Part shown: one piece after another, positions 4,410 to 47,932 of the stretch
Layout: the number at the start of each line of letters is the position of its first letter
Position numbering within the stretch: position 1 is the stretch's first letter
DNA from: an uncultured Bacilli bacterium
GTDB taxonomy: Bacteria; Bacillota_I; Bacilli_A; RF39; UBA660
DNA: 64,000 nt
Reading direction: 5' to 3'
Assembly: GCA_947623935.1 (NCBI GenBank)
Contig: CANQIE010000001.1
Location: 4,169-68,168 of the forward strand
Translations under genes and position numbers: made by a program
Notes under the pieces: model-generated
Seen by the model: only the letters and a program-made list of their open reading frames with translations
The model's database searches: none
What the model was told of the DNA's origin: nothing

Positions 4410-4423
4410 ATATAAAACTCTTT

Positions 4424-4816: not shown

Positions 4817-4921
4817 TTTATTCCTTCTTTCTCTAGTTATGTCTTTCTATAATACGCTTTTAAGTTAAATTAAGCAAGAAACAAAAAGATTTTAAACAAA
4901 AGTTAAGGTCTTTGAAAAATG

Positions 4922-5224: not shown

Positions 5225-5242
5225 ATTTTTATATTTCCTTCC

Positions 5243-5905: not shown

Positions 5906-5963
5906 AATCCAAAACCTCCTATTTTCCCCTCTTATTTATAATAACTCAAAAATGAAATAATTT

Positions 5964-7013: not shown

Positions 7014-7037
7014 GTAATCAACTCCATTATTTAATCT

Positions 7038-7355
7038 TTATTTAGCAAGTTCTTCATCCATCCAATTTAGATAATCTTTATGAATACTTGTAATATCATA
7101 CACAGCAAATTCAAAACATTCATAACTATGTATAGACTTAATTACTTCATAAATTTTTTCTTGATATTCTTTTTTAGTCGTCATTTGAAGTAAATACTCC
7201 TTTGATACTTCTCTTTGTTGATGATAATTCCAACTACTTTCACTTTCGATCACATGACAACTGGTCACGATCTTCATATCTAATAATTTTTTAACAATGG
7301 CATCAATTTCATCTATATTGTTACTGGCCGTTTCAATCATACAATATTGAGTCAT
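7038..7355 (-). CDS. cutA: CutA-like divalent-cation tolerance protein
   Basis: 105 aa; pattern IVTSCHVI....W......E.LL..T......I.EV.KSIHSYECFEF.V.DI...KDYLNWMDEE matches CutA1 family (HPYEVPE, YL.W motifs). Confidence 0.5.
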   Translation of the reverse strand: MTQYCMIETASNNIDEIDAIVKKLLDMKIVTSCHVIESESSWNYHQQREVSKEYLLQMTTKKEYQEKIYEVIKSIHSYECFEFAVYDITSIHKDYLNWMDEELAK

Positions 7356-7412
7356 AATAATCTCACCTATAAAAATTATACTATAATATCAAAAAGATAA
7401 AAATAATAGAGG

Positions 7413-7850
7413 TTATATTTCAAGTTCCATAACTACATGAACAATTCCTTCTTCTAAGAAATCATTAGAAACCGCTTTAAATCCAAATTTTCCATAAAAA
7501 CCTACAGCATGTTTTTGAGCGTCCATACATATTTTTTTGCAATTCATTTTTTCTTTAATTGATTGCAAACTTTGTTCCATCAATTCTTTACCTACACCTT
7601 TTCCATGTTTTAGAGTTAAAACTCTACCAATTTTAACAATGTCTTTATGGACATCTTGATAAAATGCTCTAAGATAGGCTATGACCTTATTATCTTTCAT
7701 AAAAAAGCAATGTAAACTGTTATAATCAATATCATCTATATCTTGATAATGAATATTTTGTTCCATAACAAAAATTTCTGATCTTGCTTTTAATATTTCA
7801 TATATTTCTGTAGTGGATAATTCATTAAATTTTTTAGATATTAAATTCAT
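7413..7850 (-). CDS. GNAT-family acetyltransferase, ElaA-like
   Basis: 145 aa; ELSTTEIYEILKARSEIFVMEQNIHYQDIDDIDYNSLH and IGRVLTLKHGKGVGKELM match ElaA/GNAT motifs. Confidence 0.7.
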   Translation of the reverse strand: MNLISKKFNELSTTEIYEILKARSEIFVMEQNIHYQDIDDIDYNSLHCFFMKDNKVIAYLRAFYQDVHKDIVKIGRVLTLKHGKGVGKELMEQSLQSIKEKMNCKKICMDAQKHAVGFYGKFGFKAVSNDFLEEGIVHVVMELEI

Positions 7851-7909
7851 CTATTTTCTCCTTACCAATTACCATTTATTTCACTTGGGATTATAAAAAT
7901 AATATTAAT

Positions 7910-8416
7910 TTAAGATAATATAAAGGCGATCGTATTGCAAACAACAGCAATAAAGAACAATGTGCCAGTTAATAAATCTGTTTTATCTTTTCTTACTTTA
8001 TAACGACTCAAAAAAGTAACGCAGTTATAAGCACATAGCAAACTAACTAAAGAGGAAGAAGAAATGTTTTTACAAGTTGAAATAATTACTAAGATAATAA
8101 AGAATAAAGCCATACCTATAATTCCATATTTCATAGATTTTAAATTTACTAATTCTGTTAATTTGATGACATTTTCTTCACACTTTTTTTCCACATTCTT
8201 TTTTTCTATCGTTTCCCCAGCAAGTATATCATTTACGCTCACTTCTAATATTTCGCTAAGTGGTTTAAGTAGAGACATATCCATTAAACATAATCCTCTT
8301 TCCCACTTACTTACAGCGTTTTTAGTAATACCTAGTTTTTCTGCTAGTTCTTCTTGTGTCAATTCTTTTGCTTTTCTTTGTTTAGCAATAAATTTGCCAA
8401 TTTTTTCTTGATTCAT
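7910..8416 (-). CDS. XRE-family helix-turn-helix transcriptional regulator with C-terminal membrane segments
   Basis: N-terminus AKQRKAKELTQEELAEKLGITKNAVSKWERG is a canonical HTH_3; C-terminal half has two hydrophobic helices. Confidence 0.75.
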   Translation of the reverse strand: MNQEKIGKFIAKQRKAKELTQEELAEKLGITKNAVSKWERGLCLMDMSLLKPLSEILEVSVNDILAGETIEKKNVEKKCEENVIKLTELVNLKSMKYGIIGMALFFIILVIISTCKNISSSSLVSLLCAYNCVTFLSRYKVRKDKTDLLTGTLFFIAVVCNTIAFILS

Positions 8417-8494
8417 ATTTTTCTCCTTTCAAGAAGAACGGTAACATTTAAACATTATTTTTTAAACATACCAAGAGTTTACTTCCCAAAATGA

Positions 8495-9485
8495 CTATTT
8501 GTTTTCTATTTGTTTTGTTTCATTTAATAATCTATCAAAATCAGATACATAGTTTCTATCTTGTATAACTTTATATTTTTCATATTCAATTTCTGCTTTT
8601 TCTACTGCTTGTTTATGAGAAACTGTTCCTTTTCCTTCTAAGACATCATAATGAAAAGCTTTTATTGCGTTTTCAACTTCTTTTTTCCAATCATCCATAT
8701 ACATTGCAATATTTCTTTCAGCATTATTTTCAGCTATATCTAAAAATACATTTACTAAATTGTTTAAATTTTTAATTTCTTTTTCATCTAAATAATTTTT
8801 GGCAATAGTAATATCTGATTTTAATATCTTCCCATCAGGTGATTTATCCCAATTGGTAAGGCCTATATTTTCTTTTGCAGAATCAACTCTATTATAAACT
8901 ATTTCCGCAGCAGTCTGTCCAGTTATAGCGTAATGAAATTTATTTTGAATCGTTTTATAAAATTCCATTGCTATTTCACTACTTTTATCATAATCTATTG
9001 AACATTCTTTCACTTGTACGAATTAATTTAATTCTTTCAAGTAATCTTTGAAAATATTCTTGATCTTTTTTATTGGCTTTCATGAATCTTTCGTCATTTA
9101 AAGCAAACCCCTGAACCATATAATCCTTAATGATTTTATTTGCCCAAGTTCTAAATTTAATTGCTTTTTTAGAATTAACTCTAAATCCTATGGAAATAAT
9201 CATATCAAGATTATAATACGGATAAACTCTTTTAACTTTACGAGTCCCTTCATTTTGAACTTGTGCAATTTTTGCACAAGTTGAATTTTCATTTAATTCT
9301 TCCTCTTTATAAATATTATTAATATGTCTAACAATACCACTTCTATCAATGTCAAATAAAGCTGCTAAAGCCTCCGTATTTAACCAAACATCTTCATTTT
9401 GAAGTAATACTTCTACTTTAGTATTTCCTTCCTCATCATTATAAAATAAAATGTTTTTTTCATTTCCAATTAATTTATCTTTCAC
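8495..9485 (-). pseudogene. RhuM-family virulence-associated protein gene split by a frameshift into two overlapping ORFs (8988..9485 N-terminal, 8495..9013 C-terminal)
   Basis: N-part ...LNTEALAALFDIDRSGIVRHINNIYKEEELNENSTC...YNLDMIISIGFRVNSKKAIKFRTWANKI and C-part HYAITGQTAAEIVYNRVDSAKENIGLTNW...YEKYKVIQDRNYVSDFDRL together match a single RhuM protein; reading frames change near 9000-9013. Confidence 0.6.
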
Positions 9486-9826
9486 AATTACACCCTCTCT
9501 AAAATTTAAAAAATCATACTCAAATATTATGATTAAATATTTCTCTTATGCATTCGCAAATGATAAGCTTGACAAACTTTCATACTATCATCCCCTAATA
9601 TCAACATATCATACATACGTTTGCTAGTCAACTTATTTTTAATAAAATTTTTATCTTATAGAAATATGCTATAATTTTCCTATTATAAAATAAAAACCAG
9701 CGCGAATGCTGATTTTACAATGTTATCATTGGAATTTCATTGATCCTACAGGGTTTTTAGCATTTTTGGAAACAAATTGAATTTTTTGTGTACATTCTGA
9801 GTACATTTTTATAGTCTTAGAGGTTC

Positions 9827-10426
9827 TTATGTTTTATTATCTCTTGTTTTTTTAATATAATTATATATATCAGTCCAATTATCAAATATTGGTATTTTAT
9901 CTGCGAAAAAATTATTTGTATTTAAACAAACTGCTTTTATGCCATATCTTTTAACATCTAAACAATTATTTATATTATCATCTATAAACAAATCCACTTT
10001 TTCTTCTTTACAAATTTTACCTTTATTTCTAGCTTTTACTATTAATTTATCATAATATATATTATTCTTTTTTAACCATTCTTCACTTTGTTTATACGGA
10101 TCATCGTGGAACTCTAAATCTCTAGCTGTAATTATGTAAATTTCATATCCATCTAAATGAAGTTTATTAACAAATTCCAAAACACCTTCTCTTGGAATAG
10201 CATTGTTAGTAATATTTTCTTGGATATTTTTTAAAAAATATTTAAGTTCTTCATATGTAAAGCCAAATGCTTTTTGATATATATTTCCATCATTCTTTTT
10301 ATCTATTAATTCTAAATTTTTCAAATTGATGTTCTTATTTAGGCTAGTTGCATATATGTAAGCAGCATTATTTAATTCTTTTTGAATATCAGTAAGAGTA
10401 TTATCGATATCTATGCCAATTCTCAT
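9827..10426 (-). CDS. HAD-superfamily hydrolase (nucleotidase-like)
   Basis: start chosen at MRIGIDIDNTL (HAD motif I DxDxT) preceded by AGGAGGAG SD; LFIDDN-type motif later; ORF-track start at 10495 is probably too far upstream. Confidence 0.55.
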   Translation of the reverse strand: MRIGIDIDNTLTDIQKELNNAAYIYATSLNKNINLKNLELIDKKNDGNIYQKAFGFTYEELKYFLKNIQENITNNAIPREGVLEFVNKLHLDGYEIYIITARDLEFHDDPYKQSEEWLKKNNIYYDKLIVKARNKGKICKEEKVDLFIDDNINNCLDVKRYGIKAVCLNTNNFFADKIPIFDNWTDIYNYIKKTRDNKT

Positions 10427-10558
10427 TAATAGTCTCCTCCTATTTACAAAAAATGTTCCCATTGAAAATTCCTTTGTTTTATTTGGATTTTTCAAATTTT
10501 TGGGAACATTTCTATTATAGATTATTACAAAACCTTCACGTATTTATTTATAATTATT

Positions 10559-11170
10559 TTATTTTGTATCAATACTTTTCATCGTATAAGTATTATAACC
10601 TTCATATTGATAACTAGCATCAATACCTTTCATATAAACTTCTCTATCGCCTATTTTATCAGTCAACGCTTTTTCAATCAATAATTTTATTTCTGTATCT
10701 TTAATAGGGCTTCTTTCCATTGCTAACAAATATTCTTCTTTTGAAACTTTGGACCAATCAACTACTTTGTTTAATTCTTTCTTTAAAATCAAATCTAACC
10801 ATATTCTGGTACTTCTTCCATTTCCTTCACGAAAAGGATGAGCAATGTTCATTTCTATGTATTTTTTTATAATGTCTTCAAAAGTATTTTGAGGCATTTT
10901 ATCTATTTTCAATAATATGTCTTCTAAATACATAGCAGAGGCGAATCTAAAATTTCCTTTAGCTAAGTTTTCGCCTCTTACTTTACCGGCAAATTCATAA
11001 ATATCCTCGAATAAATATTTATGAATTTGAGATAAACCATTAAAAGTTCCAACTTCAAATTCGTTAATTTTATTACTGTCAAATAATTCTAAAGCTTTAA
11101 TTTTGGTAATTCTTTCTTCTTCTTTAGATAGCTCTATTTCATTGGTAATACCTAGTTTATTCTGTAGCAT
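10559..11170 (-). CDS. fic: Fic-family protein (AMPylation/adenylyltransferase-type Fido domain)
   Basis: canonical Fic motif [12 protein letters not shown] in a 203-aa protein. Confidence 0.8.
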
Positions 11171-11175
11171 TAGAC

Positions 11176-13674
11176 CTATCTCCCATGACAGTTTTTATAC
11201 TTCTTACCTGAGCCACAAGGACAAGGATCATTTCTTCCAACTTTCTTAACACGTTTAGGAGTAGCCTTTTTGTCACTTTTATCTTCGTTCGTAAGTTTTT
11301 CCTTAACTACTTCTTTACGTTCGATATTCTGTCTTACTTCAGCACGTACTAAGAAAGTAGTAATATCTTTATCAATTCTTTGTTGCATTTGATCAAAGAG
11401 TTCAAATCCTTCCATCGTATAAGCACGCAATGGATCATCCTGTCCATAACCACGAAGTCCAATACCTTCTCTTAAATGAGAAAGCGTATTGATATGCTCC
11501 ATCCAATGGTTATCGATAATGTTAAGTGAAATCGCTTTTTCGAATTCATCTCTTAACTCTTCTGGAAGTTCTTTTAATTTAGCTTCGTACTCTTCTACTA
11601 CTTTCGTATATAAGTACTCAATCATTTCATCTTCTGGTTTATTATCGATTTCTTCTTTATCAATATCTTTCTTTAATAAGTTTTCATTGACATACTCACA
11701 AATTTCTTTAACATCATCATTCGTTAAGCGACCTTCTGGATAAACATGAGACTTAACTAAATCAGTAATATGGTTATGGAAAGAATCTAAAACCGTTGAA
11801 TGAATCGATTCACTATCTAGAATTTCATTTCTTCTTCCATACATGATTTCTCTTTGTTGATTCATAACATCATCGTATTGGAGTAATTGTTTACGAATAT
11901 CGAAGTTATTTCCTTCAACTCTTTGTTGCGCAGAAGAAATGGCTTTAGTGAACGTCTTACTTTGAATAGGCTGATCCCCAAATCCAAATGATTGCATCAT
12001 GGCTTTAATTCGATCCGATCCGAACCGTACCATTAAGTCATCTTCCATAGAGATATAGAACTGAGTAAATCCAGGATCTCCTTGACGACCAGAACGACCA
12101 CGTAACTGGTTGTCGATACGACGAGATTCATGACGCTCTGTACCTATAACACAAAGTCCACCTAATGCTCTAATCTCATCAGATAATTTGATATCGGTTC
12201 CACGACCAGCCATGTTAGTGGCAATCGTTACTGATTTATTCATACCGATTTTTTCGATGATTTCTGCTTCTCTTGCATGGTTCTTTGCATTTAACACTTC
12301 ATGTGGAATATGTTTTTGTTTTAATAAACTACTGATTAACTCACTCGTTTCAATGGCAATAGTACCTACTAAAACGGGTTGACCATTTTTATAACGCCGT
12401 TCAATTTCATTGATAATGGCTTTATATTTGGCTTGTTTCGTAGCATACACTAAATCCGGTGCATCTTCACGAATAACAGGCATGTTGGTAGGAATTTGAA
12501 TAACGTACATATTGTAAATGTTACGGAACTCTTCTTCTTCGGTCTTAGCAGTTCCCGTCATTCCAGCTAATTTCTTATACATACGGAATAAGTTCTGGAA
12601 CGTAATCGTAGCAAGCGTCTTCGTCTCTTGATTGATGGTAACGCCTTCTTTAGCTTCTAGTGCTTGATGAAGTCCATCACTAAAAGCACGCCCTGGCATC
12701 AAACGACCCGTAAATTGGTCAACGATTACAATCTTATCTTCTTGAACAACATAATCCACATCTCTTCTCATCGAGAAGTTGGCACGAAGGGCTTGGTTGA
12801 TATAGTGCACTAAAGAAGAAGCTTTTAAATCGTATAAGTTATCAATCTTAAAATGTTTCTCCGCTTTTGACACACCTTCATCAGTAAGCGATACACTTTT
12901 GGTTTTTTCATCGTAAATAAAGTCTGCTTCTTTCTTTAAAGTTTTAGCAAAGCGATCAGCATCAATATAGAGATTGGCACTTTGCATTTGTCCACCCGAA
13001 ATAATCAACGGTGTTCTTGCTTCATCGATTAAAACCGAATCGACCTCATCAACAATTGCAAAATTCAAAGGACGTTGAACACGATCTTCCTTACGAACAA
13101 CCATGTTATCACGCAAGTAGTCAAATCCAACTTCGTTATTGGTCGTATATAAAATATCTTTAGCATATTCAGCTTGTTTTTCACTAGGAGTTAAATCTCT
13201 TCTATTAACACCAACGGTCAAACCTAAGAATTGGTGAATGACACCCATCCAGTTGGCATCACGGTCAGCAAGGTATTCGTTAACGGTAATAACATGCACG
13301 CCTTGTCCTGTTAAAGCATTTAAGTAAGCAGGCATAACACTGGTTAACGTTTTTCCTTCACCAGTTTTCATTTCGGCAATATTACCGTAGTGAATAGCAA
13401 TTGCTCCTAATAACTGTACATAGAAAGGTTTTTGTCCTAATACACGAAAACTTGCTTCACGTACAACAGCATACGCTTCGACTAACAAATCATCAAGCGT
13501 CTCTCCATTTTCTAAACGTTTCTTAAATTCATCGGTCTTTGCTTTTAGTGCATCATCTGATAATTTTTGCATTTCTTCATCTAAATCATCGATTTTATGT
13601 GCCAAATCATTAAACCTTTTTAATTCTTTATACTCATGATCAAATAACTTCTTTAATAAACTCATGTTTATCAC
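11176..13674 (-). CDS. secA: preprotein translocase ATPase SecA
   Basis: 832 aa with DEAD-like motor motifs and C-terminal zinc finger [14 protein letters not shown]. Confidence 0.95.
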
Positions 13675-14422: not shown

Positions 14423-14644
14423 CTAATCTTCTTTAATTTCTAAGTGAAGCGTTAAGACATCGCTATAACTAAAGGATTTGACAATTTTATTTTCGTCCTC
14501 AGGCTTTACTAAAAAGACACCAGGATACGTCTCTATAATTTTTCCTTGAAACTCTTCGGTTTGATTCCTGGCTCCATAAAATTTAAATCGTAAAACTTTC
14601 CCCTTTTGGGATTCCAACTGCTCTTTTATTTTTTCAATGGTCAT
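14423..14644 (-). CDS. veg: Veg (DUF1021) protein
   Basis: 73 aa; ETYPGVFLV and SYSDVLT match B. subtilis Veg (ETYPSVFV, SYSYADILT); synteny with yabG-rsmA. Confidence 0.7.
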   Translation of the reverse strand: MTIEKIKEQLESQKGKVLRFKFYGARNQTEEFQGKIIETYPGVFLVKPEDENKIVKSFSYSDVLTLHLEIKED

Positions 14645-15426
14645 CTAGGATACCCCACGAACATCATACCATTAGTGATGATACCACCCATGCCGGCTTT
14701 TCCATATTTGGTCTTTTCGATCATGGCAATTAAATCGATCGGTTTGTTTTTATCGGACAAACTAATGCTACTTGCAATAATAGCAGGATCTAAAGCATGA
14801 ATATTGACTCTTTTAGGACTACTTGCAAAATTAGCTCCTGCCTTAATCAATTCTTCATAATCACTTTGACAAGCACCTGCGATAATGACTAATTTTTCTT
14901 GGCTCTTTTCATATTTCCGTGCCGCTCTTACCGCTTCTACGAACTCTTTGGTATTTTTATAATTGTCGATGTTATGAATATCCCCATTTCGTTTATAATA
15001 GGCATCATGTCCTGTAATCACCACGATATCAGGATTTAATTCTTCTAAGTAAGAACCAATCTCCTCTTTCATCTCATCTTCTTTTAAATTAACTCCATAA
15101 CACATGATATTTAATTTCTTATAAAAGTTCATACACCGATCCAAATACTCTTGATCGCCATCAATATGTAATATTTTCCCGGGAAGATAGAAATATTCAT
15201 TCCGATCTAATTTTAAAAAATCATCCATTTTTCCTAACATACGATCATCATCCTGTAAACCTTTAACCTCTTCGACTTTCTTCAAATCATCGATAGGACT
15301 ATCAGCCAAAAGACGAATATTGACACCTTTCAGTGAAACCATATCCCCATCGATGGCAAGGATGCGAAACACTGTATCGTTATGATAAGAATTTCTAGTT
15401 ACATAATCCCCAATACGAAAAAGCAT
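14641..15426 (-). CDS. yabG: sporulation-specific protease YabG
   Basis: MLFRIGDYVTRNSYHNDTVFRILAI N-terminus as in B. subtilis YabG; conserved position between rsmA and veg. Confidence 0.7.
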   Translation of the reverse strand: MLFRIGDYVTRNSYHNDTVFRILAIDGDMVSLKGVNIRLLADSPIDDLKKVEEVKGLQDDDRMLGKMDDFLKLDRNEYFYLPGKILHIDGDQEYLDRCMNFYKKLNIMCYGVNLKEDEMKEEIGSYLEELNPDIVVITGHDAYYKRNGDIHNIDNYKNTKEFVEAVRAARKYEKSQEKLVIIAGACQSDYEELIKAGANFASSPKRVNIHALDPAIIASSISLSDKNKPIDLIAMIEKTKYGKAGMGGIITNGMMFVGYPR

Positions 15427-16333: not shown

Positions 16334-16819
16334 TTAATTCTTTTGACTACCAACATCAATTTTTTGTGCTACACCTTCCGAAAGTTTTGAATTTTCTTTT
16401 TTCTTACTTAATAGCAAGAAGATATTAGCAGCACTTAAACCATATAACATAATTTGAAGTGGTGCAATCATATCGGAATAGTAATCAAAGTTAATATTAA
16501 ATCCCTGCTTAATTCCTGAAATCATAAATGGATCGGCAATAGCACGAATACCACAATAAATAAATAAACTAAATACTAAACAACATACAATGTTATAAAA
16601 AAAATTATCGTTTACAATCTTTTGCCTATAAATAAAATTTACCATAAATAAAATCAAAATGACTAAATAGGGTAAAAATACAGAAACAGATTCAACTAAA
16701 CTTTTATCTAAGCGTTTATACATGAATAAAATAACATAAAGTGTTAAACCTAAACTAACTAAAAGAAGTAACGTTTTTAATACGTTTAATACTTTATTTA
16801 AAAGATAATCAATCGTCAT
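16334..16819 (-). CDS. hypothetical polytopic membrane protein, last gene of SipW cluster
   Basis: 161 aa, 4 predicted TM helices; start overlaps upstream gene stop (ATGA at 16819). Confidence 0.4.
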   Translation of the reverse strand: MTIDYLLNKVLNVLKTLLLLVSLGLTLYVILFMYKRLDKSLVESVSVFLPYLVILILFMVNFIYRQKIVNDNFFYNIVCCLVFSLFIYCGIRAIADPFMISGIKQGFNINFDYYSDMIAPLQIMLYGLSAANIFLLLSKKKENSKLSEGVAQKIDVGSQKN

Positions 16820-17511
16820 TATTTAGCCCCCTCCATTTCTTGTTTAAGAAAGTTTGATAGTTCTTCTGTGAGTGTTGCAACATCACTATAAGCGTCCACA
16901 ACTTCTGTAAAGGAACCGGATACTTCATCATATGTAATGGCTGAAATATAGGTTGTAAAATGGAAACTACTATTATTTAAAAGACGACTTTTTAAACTAT
17001 TGGTTTTTCCTGCCAACTCATTGATATAAAGTCCTAACACTTTTTCATTTTGTAACAAGAATGTATTTTTGATCTCTTTTTCACTAGCATCTGCAAACCA
17101 AGAAAGACTACCAAGACAATTCTTTACAGCTTCATTTTCATAAGATTCTCTTAAATAATATACGTCGACAATATTTACTTGTTGTTTATCGAATGTACTA
17201 CTTATAGTATCATTACTTAAAGCTGTAACACAGGTATTAAGTTTTTGATAGGCAGTTTGAGCTTGAGAACTAGTCAGTGTTCCTTCATAATCGCTTGGAT
17301 TAATGCTAGCAAGATTATCCTTAATATTTTGAACCGATGTTAAATAATCATCAATAACAGAAGTTCGATAACTAGAGGAAATCGTATAAACTTTACTAAT
17401 TTCTGCTTGATGATACATATTGATAAGTAAAAAGAATGAAGCAAAAGCAAAAACTAATCCCATTAGAGAATAAGCAATAATACGACAATATTGTTTTAAA
17501 AAATCAATCAT
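16819..17511 (-). CDS. hypothetical N-terminally membrane-anchored protein in SipW cluster
   Basis: 230 aa; TM helix YSLMGLVFAFASFFLLINMY then soluble S/T-rich domain. Confidence 0.4.
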   Translation of the reverse strand: MIDFLKQYCRIIAYSLMGLVFAFASFFLLINMYHQAEISKVYTISSSYRTSVIDDYLTSVQNIKDNLASINPSDYEGTLTSSQAQTAYQKLNTCVTALSNDTISSTFDKQQVNIVDVYYLRESYENEAVKNCLGSLSWFADASEKEIKNTFLLQNEKVLGLYINELAGKTNSLKSRLLNNSSFHFTTYISAITYDEVSGSFTEVVDAYSDVATLTEELSNFLKQEMEGAK

Positions 17512-17538
17512 AAATGTCTCCTTTTTATTTTTTCATTT

Positions 17539-18114
17539 TTATGAAGCTAAAGTAACTTTGTAATGATAATGCTTATTCGTCCATGAAGTATCATAAGCAT
17601 CCATCTTTACCCAAACACGAAGAGCAAATTCATAGGTTTCATTTCCTTCAATAACACCTTCTGATAAAATATTCATTTGAAGATCGGATAAATTACCAGT
17701 AGCTACTATGTCAGTTCCTCTTTTTAATTGGTAACGAAGTTGGCTACGATCTAACAAAGTAGAAGCAGTACAACCATCTTTAATTTCACCCAAAGGCAAA
17801 TCTTCAATTAATAATCTATATTTTGCCTCATTTTCACTTTTGTTAGTTACTGTGAAAAGATATGGGTTAATAGCACTTCCATCATCGTCAGATAAAGGAT
17901 TTGCTTCCACTAAAGTGATTCCTTCACCATTATCTTTTATTGAAACTTCTAGTAGAGAAACTCCACCACTTAGATTTTCTGGTGTCATGAAGGCATAAGA
18001 GAAACTAAAGATTAAGCATAAACCTATTAATAATACAAACATGATAATAACAGGATAGGAAAAGAAGTTCTTTCCTTTTTTTTCTTCATTTTTCATTTCC
18101 ATTTTTTCTTCCAT
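17539..18114 (-). CDS. secreted protein with SipW-cognate (TasA/CalY-like) signal peptide, paralog D
   Basis: N-terminus ...LIFSFSYAFMTPENLSGG resembles SipW-cognate signal/cleavage region; C-terminal YEFALRVWVKMDAY...KHYHYKVTL motif shared with 19146..21795 paralogs. Confidence 0.5.
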   Translation of the reverse strand: MEEKMEMKNEEKKGKNFFSYPVIIMFVLLIGLCLIFSFSYAFMTPENLSGGVSLLEVSIKDNGEGITLVEANPLSDDDGSAINPYLFTVTNKSENEAKYRLLIEDLPLGEIKDGCTASTLLDRSQLRYQLKRGTDIVATGNLSDLQMNILSEGVIEGNETYEFALRVWVKMDAYDTSWTNKHYHYKVTLAS

Positions 18115-18115
18115 T

Positions 18116-19045
18116 TTAACCTCCTATGGATACTTTATCTTTTTTATTTTTCGGATAAATTCGTATCACATCTTTATATACTTCATCGTTTATTTTAACT
18201 ATTTCCTTCTTTTTCGAAGGTTCAATTAAAATTACATCTTTATATACTTCATTTACTTGCATAACTTCAATGTTGAATAATAAAGCCTTTTCTTGCTCTT
18301 CTATAACATCCTTGTCGGACACAACAGACAAGTTGTCTAACAAATTATAATCCTCTTCTTCAACTGGTTCCACCATAGGAACAACCTTAAATGGATCTTC
18401 ATCTTTTTTAGGTTTACCACCAGCAGCTTTAGTTTTATTATCTTTTTCATCTAGTACTAATTTCTTTCTTGTAGAACGAATAAACACAGCCACTAATCTA
18501 ACAAGATCATAAACGATGATAACTAAACAAGGTAGAACAATGGCAATGATCCAACCGTAGGAAGTAGATAAAAAATCTTGTAAATAACCTAATTTAGGAA
18601 TCTTGAATATGACTTTTCCTAAAATATTTTCTTGGGGTACGATCCAAGAATCTTCAATGTTGTTGTTATCTCCTTTGGTACGATATCGATAATTACCATT
18701 CGCATCTTGGTCACGTCCAACAACACGGTGAGTAACGGTTGCGCCATAATGAATAGGATCATGCGTTACAAAAGTGATGACATCTCCTACTTGTATAGAA
18801 GAAGGTAAAGCTTTAACATCAACTACAGCATCTTTAACTAGAATCGTTGGTTCCATACTATTGGTTAAAATAACATAAGCACTTAGAAGTGGCGAAACAT
18901 AATGATCTTTATTAATATTTTGTTTTTCCTCGACGAAATAGACCACCACTGTAATAGCAATTAAAACCAATATAAGTAAAATAGAATACATGAAAACAGA
19001 TGCAATAAAGTGCAACGCTCTTTTAACATAATCAAATGCTTTCAT
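18116..19045 (-). CDS. sipW: SipW-type (archaeal/ER-type) signal peptidase I with C-terminal extension containing short repeats
   Basis: LTNSMEPTI (catalytic Ser), GDVITF, TKGDNN motifs typical of SipW-type peptidases; C-terminus has repeated EVYKDVI(L/R)I segments encoded by a 20-nt direct repeat. Confidence 0.65.
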   Translation of the reverse strand: MKAFDYVKRALHFIASVFMYSILLILVLIAITVVVYFVEEKQNINKDHYVSPLLSAYVILTNSMEPTILVKDAVVDVKALPSSIQVGDVITFVTHDPIHYGATVTHRVVGRDQDANGNYRYRTKGDNNNIEDSWIVPQENILGKVIFKIPKLGYLQDFLSTSYGWIIAIVLPCLVIIVYDLVRLVAVFIRSTRKKLVLDEKDNKTKAAGGKPKKDEDPFKVVPMVEPVEEEDYNLLDNLSVVSDKDVIEEQEKALLFNIEVMQVNEVYKDVILIEPSKKKEIVKINDEVYKDVIRIYPKNKKDKVSIGG

Positions 19046-19145
19046 TTATGCACCCCGATTCTATTCACTCTACTATACATGATAACAAAAAAAAAGATTT
19101 TTTACAATAGAAAAGAAACATATAGATTATGTTTCTTGACTTATT

Positions 19146-19856
19146 TTACTTAGCAGAGGTAGCTACTAAATTGACTTTAGCAGAGAAAGTTTTTTGACTA
19201 TAGTCTTCTGCATATTGTCTAACCCACAAACGTAGGCGATATTTTTCATTATAGCCACGTTCTTCAATTCTTCTAGTAAATAACAATTTACCATCATATA
19301 CATTACTTTTAAAATCATCATATTGACTGTATACTTTGACACTTCCTATTAAAAGCGTTTCTGGAACGGCTATTTCTCTATTTCCTTTTAGATTGGTTAC
19401 ATATACTTTAACATCCGAATCTGAAAGTGTAGACTCTGCCATTTTTTCTAATATCACTTTATATTCTAATGGATTTCCTTCTCTAGGGTTACCTGTAACT
19501 TGGAAATCAAAGTAAGTATGATTCCCTACCATTACTTTTCCTTCTTCATCAAGCATAGGAAAAGCATTGGTAATATAAATTCCATTGGCAGGAAAATTAC
19601 TTCCGTTTCCACCTGGACCTGAACCATAATATCCACTATTATCGGAATAAGAGAATAAAATATCTCCTGTTTGAATAGTATTATTAGAAGTACTACTTCC
19701 TCCATCCATTCCTAAATAGTCTCGTTGAAAAGCAAATGAAAAAGTCATTATACCTGTAATCAATAAAATAAATAGGAATATAAACATATAAATATTTTTC
19801 TTAGAGGTCTTTGTTTCTTCTTGTTCCATATCCATATTCATGTCTTTTTTATCCAT
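19146..19856 (-). CDS. secreted TasA/CalY-like SipW-cognate protein, paralog C
   Basis: signal-anchor then FSFAFQRDYLGMDGG...NNTIQTGDILF (AFxD...TGTL-like TasA N-terminal motif); C-terminal YRLRLWVRQYAEDY...KTFSAKVNL. Confidence 0.5.
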   Translation of the reverse strand: MDKKDMNMDMEQEETKTSKKNIYMFIFLFILLITGIMTFSFAFQRDYLGMDGGSSTSNNTIQTGDILFSYSDNSGYYGSGPGGNGSNFPANGIYITNAFPMLDEEGKVMVGNHTYFDFQVTGNPREGNPLEYKVILEKMAESTLSDSDVKVYVTNLKGNREIAVPETLLIGSVKVYSQYDDFKSNVYDGKLLFTRRIEERGYNEKYRLRLWVRQYAEDYSQKTFSAKVNLVATSAK

Positions 19857-19947
19857 ACCTCTTCACCTCTATTATAAATGTAACATATTTTTTTTGTTTT
19901 AACAAGTTCTAATCAAAGAAAAAGTATCCTATTAGGATACTTAATTA

Positions 19948-20799
19948 TTATTTATATGATGGGGTATCTACCGCATATACGTCTAATTTAACTGAGAAAG
20001 TTTTACCATTAGTTCCACGAGTTTTTAACTTACATGTATCATCATCTAAATTCGGATGTTCTTCATTACATGTAGAACAATCAACTGTATCTTCCGAATC
20101 ACTACTAGTAGTACAAAAATCATTTGTCATATAAGTTTTATTAGTATCGATTTCATCACTTAGTTCTTTGTATCCATCAGCTGAAAGATTAGTAGTATAA
20201 TAGTGATCAGATAACCACATTTGAAAGCGATAATAATGAGTCTTTTCTCCACTAGTTTGGTCAAAAGTATTCGTATATAACAATTTATCACTATTAGATG
20301 AACCATTTCTAGTATAATTTTCTAACTTATCAAAATAACTATTTTGGTGCGTAGATTCAATATTAATTGGCGTATAATCGCCTTCTGCATCAGAAGTTTT
20401 GGTTAGTAATCTTAAACGAACATATTTAGATTCAAGCGCACTAACACTAGCATGGTCTGTTGTGTCATCTACCACGATATCATACTTAATACTCATATTA
20501 CCATTGATAGTGGAAGTTACCGTAAAATCAAATTGCCCCTTATCACCTAAAGCATTAGCTTTTGTTGCTTCTTCATCTGACATAGGCATTGCATTTGTTA
20601 ATTTAATACCATTCTCGTTTTCTTCATACTTAAATACTAAAGTACCAGTATTAATCGTATTGGTAGTTGTTCCTTGTCTTGAATAAGTAAAGAATGCAAA
20701 TGACACTCCTACTACTGCTACCACCAAAATAGCTACGGCTAAAACTGATAATAAAACTTGACTTGTTTGATGACTGTTATTATTTTTTTCTTCGTACAT
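19948..20799 (-). CDS. secreted TasA/CalY-like SipW-cognate protein, paralog B (tandem duplicate)
   Basis: start taken at second ATG (MYEEKNNN) 8 nt after AGGAGG; VGVSFAFFTYSRQGTTTNTINTGTLVF resembles TasA AFNDIKSKDATFASGTLDL; HYYRFQMWLSDHYY and GTNGKTFSVKLDVYAVD shared with paralog A. Confidence 0.55.
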   Translation of the reverse strand: MYEEKNNNSHQTSQVLLSVLAVAILVVAVVGVSFAFFTYSRQGTTTNTINTGTLVFKYEENENGIKLTNAMPMSDEEATKANALGDKGQFDFTVTSTINGNMSIKYDIVVDDTTDHASVSALESKYVRLRLLTKTSDAEGDYTPINIESTHQNSYFDKLENYTRNGSSNSDKLLYTNTFDQTSGEKTHYYRFQMWLSDHYYTTNLSADGYKELSDEIDTNKTYMTNDFCTTSSDSEDTVDCSTCNEEHPNLDDDTCKLKTRGTNGKTFSVKLDVYAVDTPSYK

Positions 20800-20865
20800 C
20801 TTTCTTATCCTCCTTATCATAATTAGATTATAATAAAGTTAACCCCCCCCAGTCAAGTAATTTGA
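20626..20865. repeat. 240-bp direct repeat copy 1 (promoter + 5'UTR + first 58 codons of paralog B)
   Basis: identical to 21622..21861 at every position I compared, offset 996 bp. Confidence 0.85.
20827..20856 (-). promoter_or_regulatory. sigma-A-like promoter TTGACT-N18-TATAAT whose spacer contains a G8 homopolymer (C8 on plus strand 20843..20850)
   Basis: minus strand reads TTGACTGGGGGGGGTTAACTTTATTATAATCTAATTATGATAAGGAGGATAAGAAAGATG; -10 lies 7 nt before first ATG, SD AGGAGG serves second ATG. Confidence 0.55.
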
Positions 20866-20955
20866 CAAAAATTTTTATCATAAAAAAAGCAGACTATATT
20901 TTTTATCATTGTCTACTTTTATCATATTACATAATACAGAGTGATTTTTATTATT

Positions 20956-21795
20956 TTATGTACTTGGTGCATCTACTGCATAAACGTGTAATTTTACTGC
21001 AAATGTTTTACCGTTAGTTCCTTTGTCCTCAGATGAATATTTTGCTGTTCCTTTTTTTTGCCCTTCTTCAGCATTTTCTCCATATACAGGATCATCACAT
21101 GGAACTTTGTGATCTGCTTCTGGAACATCCTTGTCATACTCAAGATTTGTACACATATCAGGTTTCATCATAGTTTCTTTTTCTTCTTCGCCTTCCTTGT
21201 AATGGTCAGACATCCACATTAGAAAACGATAATAATGATGACCACTTACACTAAAACTATCAGTATGTAATGTCTTAAGTGTGCCAACAGTCTTACTAGG
21301 ATCTTTAGTCGAATTAACTAATTCATCAAAATAAGTTGCTGAATCTGTTGTATTTGTATAGTTGCTATTGGTTTCACTTTTCTTCAATAAAACCTTTACA
21401 TATTTAGAATCTAATGTTTTACGTTCACCCGCTCCTTCAACTGCAGATAAAGAAACATTTTCTACTGCAATTTCATAGTTAATTTTTACATTTCCGGTGA
21501 TTGTTGACTCAACATTAAAATCAAAAGCCTGTCCTGCACCTGTTCCATAAGTCTCTCCAGTAGCCACTGTATCTGCTATAGGTAAAGCATTCTCAAGTTT
21601 AATACCTGGATTTGGTTCGTTATACTTAAATACTAAAGTACCAGTATTAATCGTATTGGTAGTTGTTCCTTGTCTTGAATAAGTAAAGAATGCAAATGAC
21701 ACTCCTACTACTGCTACCACCAAAATAGCTACGGCTAAAACTGATAATAAAACTTGACTTGTTTGATGACTGTTATTATTTTTTTCTTCGTACAT
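20956..21795 (-). CDS. secreted TasA/CalY-like SipW-cognate protein, paralog A (tandem duplicate)
   Basis: first 58 aa and entire 5' UTR/promoter identical to paralog B; C-terminal domain diverged but keeps HHYYRFLMWMSDHY and GTNGKTFAVKLHVYAVD. Confidence 0.55.
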   Translation of the reverse strand: MYEEKNNNSHQTSQVLLSVLAVAILVVAVVGVSFAFFTYSRQGTTTNTINTGTLVFKYNEPNPGIKLENALPIADTVATGETYGTGAGQAFDFNVESTITGNVKINYEIAVENVSLSAVEGAGERKTLDSKYVKVLLKKSETNSNYTNTTDSATYFDELVNSTKDPSKTVGTLKTLHTDSFSVSGHHYYRFLMWMSDHYKEGEEEKETMMKPDMCTNLEYDKDVPEADHKVPCDDPVYGENAEEGQKKGTAKYSSEDKGTNGKTFAVKLHVYAVDAPST

Positions 21796-21861
21796 CTTTC
21801 TTATCCTCCTTATCATAATTAGATTATAATAAAGTTAACCCCCCCCAGTCAAGTAATTTGA
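21622..21861. repeat. 240-bp direct repeat copy 2 (promoter + 5'UTR + first 58 codons of paralog A)
   Basis: identical to 20626..20865. Confidence 0.85.
21823..21852 (-). promoter_or_regulatory. second copy of TTGACT-G8-N10-TATAAT promoter (C8 on plus strand 21839..21846)
   Basis: identical to copy at 20827..20856. Confidence 0.55.
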
Positions 21862-25184: not shown

Positions 25185-25435
25185 AAAAAAAGATGACTTA
25201 TTATGTTAAGGACGGATCTTTTCCGCGGTACCACCTTAATTTATAATAAATCATCTTATTATACACTTTCTAAAGTTAACGCCTATCTTACGTTTTCGCC
25301 TACCTATCGACGAAAAAGTTCCGAAGCCATATCCATTTGAGTCATCTTTCCTTGCTTTCACCTAACCAAGGTCTCTTTTTTAAAGAATCAATCAAAGGAC
25401 TCTTCATCAAAACTTTTGAATATGGCTAGATTATA
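25185..25435 (-). promoter_or_regulatory. T-box riboswitch leader upstream of metG
   Basis: minus strand contains T-box sequence AATTAAGGTGGTACCGCGG (plus 25223..25240); terminator halves AAGATGATTTATTAT / ATAATAAGTCATCTT flank it, followed by U-run and metG RBS; ATG-containing candidate specifier region GAAAGATGACTC further 5'. Confidence 0.65.
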
Positions 25436-25447
25436 ACATAATTCAAA

Positions 25448-25978
25448 TTATTGTTCAAGGTGTTTCGATAAAAATTGTGTAATAATCGTAACCATGTGCT
25501 TTTCGGTATCGGTAATATTTTTTTCCGGTTCATAAAGAATAACTTTTCCTACGGCATCCCCATTTACAAGAATAGTTGATCCATAGAAGTAACCTTCTTC
25601 AAATAGTCCATCTGATATCTCAAACTTCGTCTTGAGATGAGAATTTAGTTCTTTCTTATCGACAATGTTCTCTTCTAAAGTTCTAGATAAACTTCTGCCT
25701 AAATATTTTTTTCTTAATGGAAGAGAGCATCCTAATACCTCATCTCGATCCGTTATAATAACGGAGGCATTTAGTGATTGATACACGGCATCGGCTAAAG
25801 CCTGTGAAATATCTTCCATATCGTTCATTGGTGAATATTTCTTTAAAGCAATCATATCTTTATCCACAAATATTTCCAATGACTCACCATCCCTAATCCG
25901 TAAACTTCTGCGTATTTCTTTAGGAACGACGATTCTTCCTAAATCGTCTATTCTTCTAACAACTCCGGTTGTTTTCAT
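25448..25978 (-). CDS. spoVT: stage V sporulation protein T (AbrB-type N-domain + GAF-like C-domain)
   Basis: MKTTGVVRRIDDLGRIVVPKEIRRSLRIRDGESLEIFVDKDMIALKKYSP is near-identical in pattern to B. subtilis SpoVT; located after mfd as in Bacillus; ORF-track N-terminal extension to 26116 rejected. Confidence 0.8.
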   Translation of the reverse strand: MKTTGVVRRIDDLGRIVVPKEIRRSLRIRDGESLEIFVDKDMIALKKYSPMNDMEDISQALADAVYQSLNASVIITDRDEVLGCSLPLRKKYLGRSLSRTLEENIVDKKELNSHLKTKFEISDGLFEEGYFYGSTILVNGDAVGKVILYEPEKNITDTEKHMVTIITQFLSKHLEQ

Positions 25979-26160
25979 AAAATCCCCACTTTCCTTACAA
26001 TATCTAGTTTTCCAACAAAAAGAATGTTTATACCTAGAATATATTTTTTTACTTTTTACTGCTTCATAAATATTATAAGCATTTTTTGGGCAATTTTCTT
26101 TGGAAATATTTACCAATAGTTTACAATCGTTTAAAAATAAGGCTTTTATGGCCTTATTTT

Positions 26161-38264: not shown

Positions 38265-38282
38265 AAATTATCACCTCAAAAT

Positions 38283-38366
38283 AAAAGATGCACATGAGAT
38301 TAAACTATTAAAGCTGCTATCTTCCGATCCTGACTTGGTTCTAGTCATCTCATTGCATCGTTATTA
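38283..38366 (-). ncRNA. ffs: small SRP RNA (4.5S/scr), domain IV
   Basis: minus strand GATGCAATGAGAT...GTCAGGATCGGAAGATAGCAGC...ATCTCATGTGCATC: closing helix plus conserved GUCAGG-NNN-GGAA-NNN-AGCAGC with GGAA tetraloop; U-run follows. Confidence 0.6.
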
Positions 38367-38404
38367 TTGTAATCTATTTTTATTTTTTTTGCAACTATAT
38401 ATTA

Positions 38405-43156: not shown

Positions 43157-44272
43157 TTATTTCATCCTTTCTTCGATTGTTCCATCTTGTACTGTAAATA
43201 TTTTAGCATCTTGTAATATATCCCTTTTTATATCTTTTAAATCCGTAGTTGTAATGATGGTTTGAATATCTTTTTCAATATATTTCAATAATTTATTTTT
43301 CTTTTTTCGATCAATTTCACTAAAAATATCATCTAATAAAAGAACGGGTGTTGTAGAGGTATCTTCTTTAAAGAGTTCAATCTCTGCTAATTTAAAACAA
43401 ATAACAGCTAATCGTTGTTGTCCTTGGGAAGCAAAAAAACGCATATTATCGTTGTTCAAATAAAAAGAAAAATCATCTCGATGCGGTCCAAATAAAGTAG
43501 TGCCTTGAGCTAGTTCTCGTTCCCTATTCTTCCGTAATTTATTCACTAATTCTTTATTTAGACTTGCTTCTTCAAAGCTAGCAACTTCAATATTAGGTTC
43601 ATATTTTATAACAAGACCACTGGTTCCTGTTATATTTTCATAAATAGTGCCAATCACTTTATTGATTCGATTTAAAAATTCATTCCGATATTTATAAATT
43701 TTAACTGCTCGCTCCACTAGTTTTTCATCTAATACTGATAAATAGTTCTCATCCCTTAAATGATTCACATACATAAGTCGTAAATATTCATTTCGATTTT
43801 TTAAAATCTTATCGTACTCATTTAGTAATTGCAGATAAGTTCTCGATAATTGACTCATATCAATATTTAAAAGATTTCTTCTAATGGATGGCGAACCTTT
43901 GATAATCTCTAAATCATCGGGTGTAAAAATAATCACATTTAAATGGGTAATATAATCAGCAATTTTTCTTACTTCTTTACCATTTAATAAAACTTTTTTT
44001 TGTAATTTAGTGAGTTGAATTTCTAAATCACGAAAGATTTTTCCATCTTTCACAGTACCCTTAATTTTAGATTGTTCCTCCCCTATTTTGATTAATGTGT
44101 TTTCGATTCCTTGTCGATGTGATTTTGTAAGAGCTAAAAGATAGATACTTTCTAGAATATTGGTTTTTCCCTGAGCATTATTTCCAACAAATATATTGAT
44201 ACCGGGATGTAATTTAATATTTTGCTTTTTATAATTTCGAAAATGAATTAAGCTAATTTTCGTTAATATCAT
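43157..44272 (-). CDS. recF: DNA replication and repair protein RecF
   Basis: Walker [13 protein letters not shown] signature, 371 aa. Confidence 0.95.
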
Positions 44273-44384
44273 AATTTGATAAAAAAACGCTCATAAAATC
44301 ACCTTTTCTTGAAGTCCAATACTCCTATACACACATATCTATTATAACATAGATTTTATCTTTAAACCATAAAAAAAGGCTTTT

Positions 44385-44861
44385 TTAGCCATTTTTTACT
44401 GTTTTTCGATGATTTAAAATAGATTCTAATAAAGTCGCTCTTAAAAATTGATTATTTAGAGAATAACTGGAGACATTGGTTTTAATAATTTTTCCATTAT
44501 TGAAATAGATTAAAGCTTTTCTTTGATTTTTTCCAATCTTTTTAAAATGCTTAAGGGATATCCAAATACAATCATCTAATAAAGGTGAATTGGTTGGAAA
44601 GAAAATGAGCCTTCGATCTTCTTCTACCACAATAGGTAATTTGTACTCTGCATTTAGTATTGCTTTAGACCCTATTACTCTCCCCTCATAACTACTTCCA
44701 TAATACTTACAACTGTCATCCATAATCTCGTAAGCAGACTTATCTACGATATACTCATCGTTGGTTTCAATGATACGTGACTTATTTTCAGATATACTAA
44801 TAATAGCTAGTGTATCATCATTGATTTCATAATCAAACATTTCTTTTCCCCCTAACTGCAA
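44385..44861 (-). CDS. comK: ComK-family competence transcription factor-like protein
   Basis: CKYYGSSYEGR, PIVVEEDRRLIFFPTNSP...CIWISLKHF, YFNNGKI blocks align with B. subtilis ComK (CRFFGSSYAGR, PIMVDPSNQIFLFPTLSS..CGWISHVHV, TFSNGKT). Confidence 0.7.
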   Translation of the reverse strand: MQLGGKEMFDYEINDDTLAIISISENKSRIIETNDEYIVDKSAYEIMDDSCKYYGSSYEGRVIGSKAILNAEYKLPIVVEEDRRLIFFPTNSPLLDDCIWISLKHFKKIGKNQRKALIYFNNGKIIKTNVSSYSLNNQFLRATLLESILNHRKTVKNG

Positions 44862-44970
44862 ATTTTAAATTTGCGCCACCATTTTATCAAATTTACCTGT
44901 CGAAATTCCTCTAATTTTGTCGAAGGGAAAAAATTTTGTCAAAAAAAGAAGAAAGCCATTTTTCTTCCTT

Positions 44971-46092
44971 TTAATAAGTACGAATTGGTAAAACTAGTTG
45001 AACGAGTGTTGGATCCTCTTTAGATTTTAAAATAATAGGTTTAATTTCTCCTACAAAAGAGATATCTACATTATCTGAAGGAAAACTTCTTAAAGCTTCC
45101 ATCATATATTTTGCTACAAATGAAATATGGATATTTTCATCATTATCTTTTTCCACAACCATCTTTTCTTCAACACGTCCTAATTCAAGTGAACTAGACC
45201 TAACAAATAACTTATTATCATCGGTCTCAAGGGTTACTACATTTTTCTCTTTATCACTGGTTAAAATACTAGCTCTATCAATAACACTATATAAACTACT
45301 TACAGTTGTTGAAACAGTTAACAACGAATCCTCAGGTAATAAATTAGAAGTATTTGGATAAGTTCCACTAATAAGACGAGATTGGAATAAGAGATTTTCA
45401 AACTTAAATAGAATCTTATTATTAAATACATGTAATTCCATTAAATCTTCGGTATCAGGCATAATCTTACTTAATTCAATTAAATTTTTACTTGGAACAA
45501 TAATATTGTAACTCTCTTCCACAACTTGATCTAATTGAATTGTTTTTCGAGCAAGACGATAAGAATCGGTTGCATTACATTCTAGAATATTTCCATTAAT
45601 CTTAAAGTTAAGTCCTGTTAAAACTGGTCTAGATTCATCATTAGAAGAAGCAAAAGCAGTTTGATCAATAATACTTTTAAAAATATTATTTGGAATTTTG
45701 ATAGGTTTTTTACTTTCTTCTAAATTAACATTAGGATATTCTGTTTGACTAATACCATTTAAATTAAATTCACTATTTTCTGTATAAATAAGAATTTTTA
45801 AATCATCAATGACTTCTATATTAATATATTCATCAGGTAATTTACGAACGATATCTAAAACATATTTTCCTTGAATGATAATACTTCCTTCTGTTTCAAT
45901 ATCCATTACATCTTTAGCTTCAATAAAATTTTGAATCGTTATATCATTATCCGATGCTGTTAAAGTTAAACCTTTCTTTGATAAATCAAATTTAATACCG
46001 GATAATACCGGAATTAAAGTTTTACTAGAAAGTGCTTTTGAGACTTTATTTAATCCGTCTTGAAGAATCTCCTTTTTAATTTTTAATTTCAT
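44971..46092 (-). CDS. dnaN: DNA polymerase III beta sliding clamp
   Basis: 373 aa three-domain clamp, conserved MKLKI...start. Confidence 0.95.
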   Translation of the reverse strand: MKLKIKKEILQDGLNKVSKALSSKTLIPVLSGIKFDLSKKGLTLTASDNDITIQNFIEAKDVMDIETEGSIIIQGKYVLDIVRKLPDEYINIEVIDDLKILIYTENSEFNLNGISQTEYPNVNLEESKKPIKIPNNIFKSIIDQTAFASSNDESRPVLTGLNFKINGNILECNATDSYRLARKTIQLDQVVEESYNIIVPSKNLIELSKIMPDTEDLMELHVFNNKILFKFENLLFQSRLISGTYPNTSNLLPEDSLLTVSTTVSSLYSVIDRASILTSDKEKNVVTLETDDNKLFVRSSSLELGRVEEKMVVEKDNDENIHISFVAKYMMEALRSFPSDNVDISFVGEIKPIILKSKEDPTLVQLVLPIRTY

Positions 46093-47608: not shown

Positions 47609-47932
47609 ATCCTTATCAGCGTATTGTTTAAAAGTAAATTCATTGTTTTTTATTGTAACTGAAATTGTGGAAAAAGAAAAGAAAAAAAATTAAAAAATTG
47701 AAATTCACAGGTTATTCACCTGTTTTGCACAAAGTTATCCACTAATCTTATCCTTATTATATAAGGAAATGGTTGATTTTTCCACAAAATATGTAAATTT
47801 TATAATCAACAAGGTGCATTTTGTTTTCCACAAAGCTGTGCAAAATGTGGAAAAAATAAAAATCTAAAAAGCGGTTGACAAATTTCCTTTTTTCCTATTA
47901 TAATAATGGAGACTTTATGTTTGGAGGTGGAA
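47609..47932. promoter_or_regulatory. oriC DnaA-box cluster upstream of dnaA
   Basis: at least six 8/9 or 9/9 matches to TTATCCACA in both orientations (47666, 47735, 47778, 47824, 47846 etc.) plus A-tracts. Confidence 0.8.
47875..47904 (+). promoter_or_regulatory. rpmH promoter TTGACA-N18-TATAAT
   Basis: perfect -35 and -10 hexamers read directly, about 30 nt upstream of rpmH ATG. Confidence 0.5.

Follow-up and report, generated by a model that had tools for sequence, protein, structure and literature searches.

Why does a gene of the ComK family, that of the competence master regulator, occupy the dnaN-recF slot, which adjoins the replication origin? The locus lies in a stretch of 64,000 nucleotides (the window) from an uncultured Bacilli bacterium of the GTDB order RF39 (contig CANQIE010000001.1 of assembly GCA_947623935.1, positions 4,169 to 68,168 of the forward strand). 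An earlier note on this DNA had described there a 158-residue ComK paralog embedded in the dnaA-dnaN-recF-gyrB operon region, and had seen in this unexpected placement a regulator subject to origin-proximal gene dosage and possibly to DnaA. We find that the family and the slot are as described, and that the gene is a fixed trait of its lineage and a transcription unit of its own, with a promoter that carries helically phased repeats of the motif TTCGACA. The factor that binds them is most probably a phosphorylated response regulator, for which Spo0A~P is the best candidate. The coordinates of the locus, numbered within the window, are collected in Table 1.

The first step is the gene itself. 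The open reading frame (ORF) runs on the minus strand from its outermost possible start, a TTG at 44861, to 44385. A public protein of 100% identity (P0001) is called with 151 residues and the N-terminus MFDYEIND. The 158-residue frame exists as it had been described, while the actual start is the ATG at 44840. The protein matches the Pfam model ComK (PF06338) with E=2.2e-40 and 138.3 bits (cutoff 22.3), over model positions 3-150 of 152; a search against NCBIfam gave no matching model. BLASTP aligns it over 141 residues (E=5e-30), with 35% identity, to P0203, a ComK-family protein of 192 residues, the C-terminal tail of which is similar to that of B. subtilis ComK. In an alignment of 112 sequences, C44, G48, G53, R54, K67 and P69 are invariant, and the blocks CKYYGSSYEGR, PIVVEE..LIFFPT and W-I-S, on which the ComK assignment had been based, consist of invariant or near-invariant columns. 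The pairwise ratio of nonsynonymous to synonymous substitution rates (dN/dS) is 0.03-0.2, which indicates purifying selection, and the guanine-plus-cytosine (GC) content of the gene is similar to that of the surrounding DNA. The best explanation is that the ORF is a real gene, encoding a functional, minimal transcription factor of the ComK family.

The second step is its position. dnaA lies beyond dnaN on one side and gyrB-gyrA beyond recF on the other, the sign of the GC skew changes at ~47.6-48.0 kb, and 2.8 kb separate the start of the comK-like gene from the cluster of DnaA boxes at oriC. In Bacillus, the same slot holds another small gene, that of the S4-domain protein YaaA/RlbA; the two families are unrelated, so that this is a positional replacement only, and in the window dnaN and recF enclose no S4-domain ORF. 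A word-indexed protein search returned 117 relatives, nearly all of 146-172 residues, and, among 1.84 billion cluster representatives, a profile search picked out 1954 family members at E<=0.001, which include short forms (~150 residues) and long forms (~190 residues). A scan of one genome per species gave 187 stretches encoding a relative. The promoter and intergenic counts given below were made over 83-84 non-redundant related loci (85 for the K-box scan). The 80 best stretches all come from metagenome-assembled genomes (MAGs) of gut bacteria that are uncultured and labelled "Bacilli", "Tenericutes" or "Mollicutes", including Candidatus (Ca.) Faecenecus and Ca. Scybalousia; the hosts are rabbit, chicken, human, mouse and ruminants. 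Ca. Faecenecus corresponds to the GTDB genus CAG-988, family CAG-611, order RF39 (PMC8035907). Using tblastn of the window's own proteins, we found the order (jag-yidC-rnpA, divergent) dnaA-dnaN-comK-recF-gyrB-gyrA in every locus with flanks present among the 84 examined, even where the identity of DnaN falls to 42%. The most distant short forms that were looked up, P0117 (36% identical) and P0103, show the order dnaN-comK-recF too, whereas a long form of 182 residues from a "Bacillales bacterium" (P0111) lies in an unrelated context, adjoining a YhjD-family gene. In gut Bacilli of the RF39 type, the comK-like gene thus has a permanent place between dnaN and recF. Our literature searches for ComK with dnaN/recF, RFN20 or RF39 found no published description of this arrangement. 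The placement is unexpected only in a qualified sense, being fixed across the related genomes found and so a trait of the lineage, not a peculiarity of one genome. The label of paralog is not supported: no second ComK was seen, with a single locus per assembly among the best 80 genomes.

The third step is to ask how the gene is transcribed. The spacer on its dnaN side measures 130 bp and that on its recF side 112 bp (medians over related loci, 127 and 123 bp), and each contains a terminator-like hairpin followed by a T-run. A degree of read-through from dnaN is possible, as these hairpins are weak and rich in A/T; the dnaN-side one was missed by the scan tool, its stem having fewer than three G-C pairs. 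A generic promoter scan gave 30 hits against 30.5 in shuffled sequences, with no excess in this A+T-rich DNA, and for this reason the promoter assignments rest on conservation across loci. A TAnnnT hexamer is found 11 nt past the proximal TTCGACA box in 41 of 81 loci, and the window has the same 11-nt spacer; when hexamers at any allowed offset are counted, 40 out of 55 carry the TG extension. In a separate count, 35 of the 41 recognisable extended -10 elements (TGnTAnnnT) stand 11 nt past that box. No -35 hexamer is present 17 bp from the -10 of the comK-like promoter. recF has a near-consensus promoter of its own. Hence, with a hairpin and a T-run on both sides and its own promoter, the comK-like gene is an independent transcription unit, and the picture of a gene embedded in an operon is not supported.

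The TTCGACA boxes are the most distinctive part of this promoter. By an iterated weight matrix, 160 boxes were found in 81 of 83 upstream regions, one to three per region, with the consensus TTCGACA(AA). Their spacings (n=79) are 10 bp in 46 cases, 20 bp in 28 and 19 bp in three. They are specific to this spacer: their coding-strand density per kb is 5.4 between dnaN and comK, as against 0 in both the comK-recF and the dnaA-dnaN spacer and at most 0.15 in the oriC spacer and in flanking coding sequences. In the whole window, TTCGACA occurs five times against 7.6 expected, and two of the five are those of the comK-like promoter. Loosely phased pairs number three against 1.1 expected, and the comK-like promoter pair is the sole perfect one; because the 64-kb window contains no other, a regulon cannot be inferred from it.

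What could bind these boxes? B. subtilis PcomK is itself said, by Mirouze et al. in 2012, to be a direct target of Spo0A~P. Read on the opposite strand, TTCGACA is TGTCGAA, the Spo0A box, and, over the 160 boxes, the positions G2, C4 and G5 are kept in 158, 145 and 121, respectively; these are the bases of the 0A box that Spo0A contacts (PMC3485338). Spo0A~P dimers bind 0A boxes that are 3 bp apart, i.e., with a 10-bp period (PMC2731898). The likeness to known Spo0A promoters (abrB, spoIIG, A2c of phages phi29/Nf and B. subtilis PcomK) includes the 7/7 core match, the A/T flanks, the contact bases, and the overlap of the core promoter with tandem boxes 3 bp apart (PMC3485338, PMC2731898); the window's own boxes differ from these in being 20 and 19 bp apart and not 10. 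RF39 is predicted to sporulate, with spo0A treated as indispensable and not among the reported losses of the lineage (PMC10868615). The window also carries two sporulation genes on the minus strand, yabG at 14641-15426 (Peptidase_U57, 312 bits) and spoVT at 25448-26116 (SpoVT_C with an AbrB-type N-terminal domain), in agreement with that published prediction. We propose a phosphorylated response regulator as the factor that most probably binds the repeats and, because of the TGTCGAA match, the conserved contact bases, the 10-bp geometry and the sporulation prediction, Spo0A~P as the best candidate for it.

Such an input would differ from that of canonical ComK. A K-box is defined here as two AAAA-N5-TTTT boxes with a spacer of 8, 18 or 31 bp. 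No K-box is found in the comK-like promoter of the window, and only three matches lie within 250 bp upstream of the gene among the 85 related loci. In contrast, at L091 (2565-2806), upstream of a canonical ComK of 182 residues from a "Bacillales bacterium", two AAAA-N5-TTTT boxes are exactly 31 bp apart, which is the classical type-III K-box geometry, and no TTCGACA box is present. The short form thus appears, by comparison with this single outgroup locus, to have exchanged ComK-type autoregulation for the input of a response regulator.

The protein is also a reduced version of the canonical one. It retains the full ComK domain of the B. subtilis and Bacillales proteins, with the blocks SC.Y.GSS..GR, K.PI, FFPT.S, W.S and NQ..R, in 151 residues instead of ~190; it ends where the long forms run on for ~40 residues past the last helix. 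In B. subtilis, this C-terminal tail carries the motif recognised by MecA, and Susanna et al. are said to have found in 2006 that it is required for transcription activation, probably for tetramer formation, and dispensable for DNA binding; a literature search on ComK truncation gave nothing of use. Canonical ComK binds DNA as a dimer or tetramer via the minor groove. Neither a PDB sequence search nor Foldseek found a solved ComK structure. The AlphaFold2 monomer model built from 112 sequences (predicted local distance difference test, 93.4; predicted template modelling score, 0.88) has two halves rich in beta structure, with two short helices, and ends in a long C-terminal helix (125-150). 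The predicted fold is LytTR-like, with a Foldseek probability of 0.93-0.99 for the top-ranked matches, and the LytTR protein ComE of S. pneumoniae is among the best structural matches. A 2026 preprint (PMC13232269) mentions in passing that a ComK model resembles RemA and LytTR.

Taken together, these results lead us to favor the following explanation, whose chances as a whole we put slightly above even. The gene would encode a minimal ComK factor with an activator-type promoter, i.e., one that lacks a -35 and has, upstream of its extended -10, one to three TTCGACA(AA) repeats in helical phase. A phosphorylated response regulator, with Spo0A~P as the best candidate, would bind the repeats, and expression would thereby be gated by starvation and developmental signalling. 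At 2.8 kb from oriC, the copy number of the gene would scale with replication initiation or fork stalling, as in pneumococcal comCDE. The ComK-like protein would then turn on a competence or K-state programme and, its tail being absent, the short form would escape MecA/ClpCP-type control exerted through the tail.

The dosage effect is physically plausible because of the short distance to oriC. A switch of the pneumococcal type would be expected to change expression and state at a less than two-fold rise in copy number. In S. pneumoniae, origin-proximal dosage control of a competence regulator is established for comCDE, where replication stress increases the dosage of genes near the origin and so triggers competence (Slager 2014, reviewed in PMC5034851). 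The two systems have in common a competence-type regulator gene a few kb from oriC and, through the LytTR domain of ComE, a resemblance of predicted structure. On the other hand, the regulators belong to different sequence families, and no peptide pheromone or kinase gene adjoins the comK-like gene, for which a dosage response is a conjecture.

Several observations weigh against the explanation that we favor. Canonical ComK activates the late competence operons comG, comE, comF and comC, which bear K-boxes, and comFA/comFC stand upstream of hpf-secA in many Firmicutes. The window contains no late competence genes, comFA/comFC are not upstream of its hpf-secA, and its K-boxes, with spacers of 8, 18 and 31 bp, number 1, 0 and 1 against 0.24, 0.35 and 0.39 expected, i.e., chance level; neither of the companions by which the earlier note proposed to check its ComK reading, late com genes and K-boxes, is thus supported within these 64 kb. 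In 836 kb of related origin regions, 25 K-boxes were counted against 5-13 in block-shuffled sequences, at no conserved position. The tail-less short form may not work as a classical activator, if the tail requirement reported for B. subtilis applies to it. A box at -30 to -24 could also mean repression instead of activation. As to the factor itself, spo0A was not directly seen in the window or in the related loci, its presence in the lineage coming from a published gene survey; direct repeats of 7 bp with a period of 10-11 bp that abut the -10 also fit regulators of the OmpR/PhoB type; and ~20% of the boxes read TTTGACA, the -35 consensus of sigma-A. It is for these last three reasons that we only infer the assignment to Spo0A.

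Among the other explanations, the one that survives best is a ComK-fold regulator in the YaaA/RlbA slot that acts on replication, repair or a sporulation-linked cell cycle (e.g., on recF-gyrBA or growth arrest) and not on DNA uptake. We hold it to be unlikely, and we give the same low credence to its more specific form, in which the ~150-residue ComK core would be a developmental or cell-cycle regulator triggered by Spo0A, serving growth arrest, replication or repair at the entry into sporulation. The absolute linkage to dnaN and recF down to the lowest DnaN identity speaks for such a role, as do the lack of K-boxes and of the canonical tail, and retention of the gene in the strongly reduced genomes of RF39 (PMC6784871) argues for a core function. 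Synteny alone, however, is no proof of function, and the core ComK domain is fully conserved; moreover, recF is served by its own near-consensus promoter, which shares no motif with that of the comK-like gene, and no link between the two is seen in their sequences. If true, a Spo0A-triggered role other than uptake would give the ComK family a second, unrecognised role and make chromosome position an element of the circuit.

Somewhat less credible still is the possibility that the TTCGACA repeats are the comK-like protein's own sites, through which it would activate its own gene as ComK of B. subtilis does. Such autoregulation is characteristic of the ComK family, LytTR domains such as those of AgrA and ComE recognise direct repeats, the predicted fold is LytTR-like, and within the available sequence the boxes are confined to the comK-like gene. 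TTCGACA is, however, unlike the ComK AT-box AAAA-N5-TTTT, and the long-form locus L091 has AT-boxes and lacks TTCGACA. LytTR sites are 9-bp repeats with a period of ~21 bp. The 10-bp spacing that prevails here (46 of 79) is too tight for two domains of LytTR size and is exactly the tandem geometry of Spo0A (PMC2731898).

We consider improbable the reading closest to the earlier note, in which a competence master regulator shares its transcript with the dnaA-dnaN-recF cluster and is controlled by DnaA. The gene does lie on the same strand as dnaN and recF and close to oriC, and the subclade formed by L068, L071 and L082 has a DnaA box in the 5' untranslated region (UTR), perfect in two of the three. 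Co-transcription is nevertheless opposed by the hairpins and T-runs past dnaN and past the comK-like gene, and by the separate promoters of comK and recF. As for DnaA control, no DnaA box (TTATCCACA) with at most one mismatch is present at 44841-44970 in the window, and such a box occurs in only 12 of 84 related upstream regions, in four of them perfect; the promoter carries phased TTCGACA instead. Finally, a chance ORF, a pseudogene or a recent transfer, for which nothing speaks beyond the atypical context, is refuted by the 138-bit match, the 187 relatives, a dN/dS far below 1, the native GC content and the identical context.

What would the Spo0A-gated ComK switch that we favor mean for its hosts? 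RF39 is a widespread, uncultured gut lineage with reduced genomes and many auxotrophies (PMC6784871). The strong selection on a ComK-type switch at a fixed place beside oriC points to the importance of a K-state or competence-like programme for these bacteria, perhaps in the use of DNA as a nutrient or in repair. The locus is a candidate for a second, independent case, after pneumococcal comCDE, of a competence-type regulator hard-wired to the copy number of the origin. The family is known; the context, a minimal ComK in the RF39 dnaN-recF slot behind a promoter with Spo0A-type boxes, is apparently undescribed. Both the sharply defined promoter and the minimal 151-residue protein are directly testable in vitro, in a culture-free way.

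Table 1. Positions of the comK-like gene, its signals and its neighbours in the 64,000-nucleotide window
Feature	Position	Strand	Basis
Short-form ComK-family coding sequence, 151 residues plus TAA stop (44385-44387)	44385..44840	(-)	Pfam, public gene call, dN/dS, AlphaFold2 model
Proximal TTCGACA box, ~-30 to -24	44898..44904	(-)	
Second TTCGACA box, 20 bp upstream of the proximal box	44918..44924	(-)	
Third, degenerate box TTTGACA, 19 bp upstream of the second	44937..44943	(-)	
Extended -10 of the comK-like gene, TGATAAAAT	44881..44889	(-)	Cross-locus conservation
5'-UTR hairpin/palindrome GCAAATTTAAAATTTGC, between -10 and Shine-Dalgarno	44858..44874	(-)	
Shine-Dalgarno AGGGGG, 7-8 nt 5' of the ATG	44848..44853	(-)	AGGGGG in 52/84 upstream regions
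Terminator-like hairpin (GAAGAAA..TTTCTTC) and T-run, just past the dnaN stop	44948..44967	(-)	By eye from sequence
Terminator-like hairpin (GGCT..AGCC) and T7 run, overlapping the comK-like stop codon	44371..44390	(-)	Also in related loci inspected
recF promoter, near-consensus extended -10 TGTTATAAT	44341..44349	(-)	TATAAT in 80/83 comK-recF intergenic regions
Conserved element GTATAGGAGTA(C), ~+1 of the recF transcript	44320..44330	(-)	GTATAGG in 61/83 loci
dnaN, upstream neighbour	44971..46092	(-)	ORF list, tblastn
recF, downstream neighbour; gyrB and gyrA tightly packed after it	43157..44272	(-)	ORF list, tblastn
oriC, five clustered DnaA-box-like sites between rpmH and dnaA, where the GC skew switches	47666..47854	.	

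Further details of the two spacers were noted. A hairpin at the position of the 5'-UTR palindrome is found in most loci, with differing sequences (mean z = -1.5; z < -2 in 35% of loci). It pairs with the Shine-Dalgarno sequence GGGGGATAT in L015, L016, L024, L028, L038, L040, L045 and L048, and it includes the DnaA box in L068 and L071 (TGTGGATAA) and in L082 (GGTGGATAA). L082, from the roe deer MAG RGIG4749, also carries between the comK-like gene and recF a 380-residue IS605-type TnpB-like gene with a C-terminal zinc finger (5655-6797), the sole break of the tight spacing among the loci examined. Rfam gave no match in either intergenic region, and RNAalifold found only a 4-bp stem in the recF leader, so that a structured RNA is unsupported there; the GTATAGGAGTA element, strongly conserved over the comK-recF spacers of L004-L092 (44273-44349 in the window, minus strand), may be an operator or a signal of the initial transcribed sequence. 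In the subclade of the window, a 13-codon upstream ORF (44252-44305, minus strand; Shine-Dalgarno AAGGTGA, ATG at 44293) overlaps the recF ATG at 44272, which has no Shine-Dalgarno of its own, and this suggests translational coupling of recF. The block AAGGTGAnnnnATGRGY..TTTTT is kept in many loci.

The rest of the window is an ordinary Firmicute origin region, with prfB, secA, hpf, rsmA, metS, mfd, pth, holB, recR, dnaX and tadA, then gyrA/B, recF, dnaN, dnaA, rpmH, rnpA, yidC and jag, and also mnmE/G, rsmG, parAB, ychF, rpsF, ssb and rplI. A T-box leader (25205-25419, 118 bits) lies upstream of metS and a small signal recognition particle RNA (38271-38369, 64 bits) between tadA and gyrA, both on the minus strand. 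At 16334-21816, on the same strand, a signal peptidase I gene (18116-19045, weak Peptidase_S26 match) has around it four proteins whose N-terminal signal anchors are of the TasA/SipW-cognate type (..SFAFF.., ..TGTL..); Pfam found nothing in these proteins; the two largest (286 and 290 residues) have identical N-terminal ~60 residues, and the region may be a SipW-dependent fibre locus. Between prfB and secA, the interval ~3800-11200 on the minus strand has a low GC content (0.26-0.29) and, as judged by eye, Fic-domain, RhuM-like, XRE-type helix-turn-helix and GNAT-like genes; it resembles a variable island that was inserted into the conserved pair of secA and prfB.
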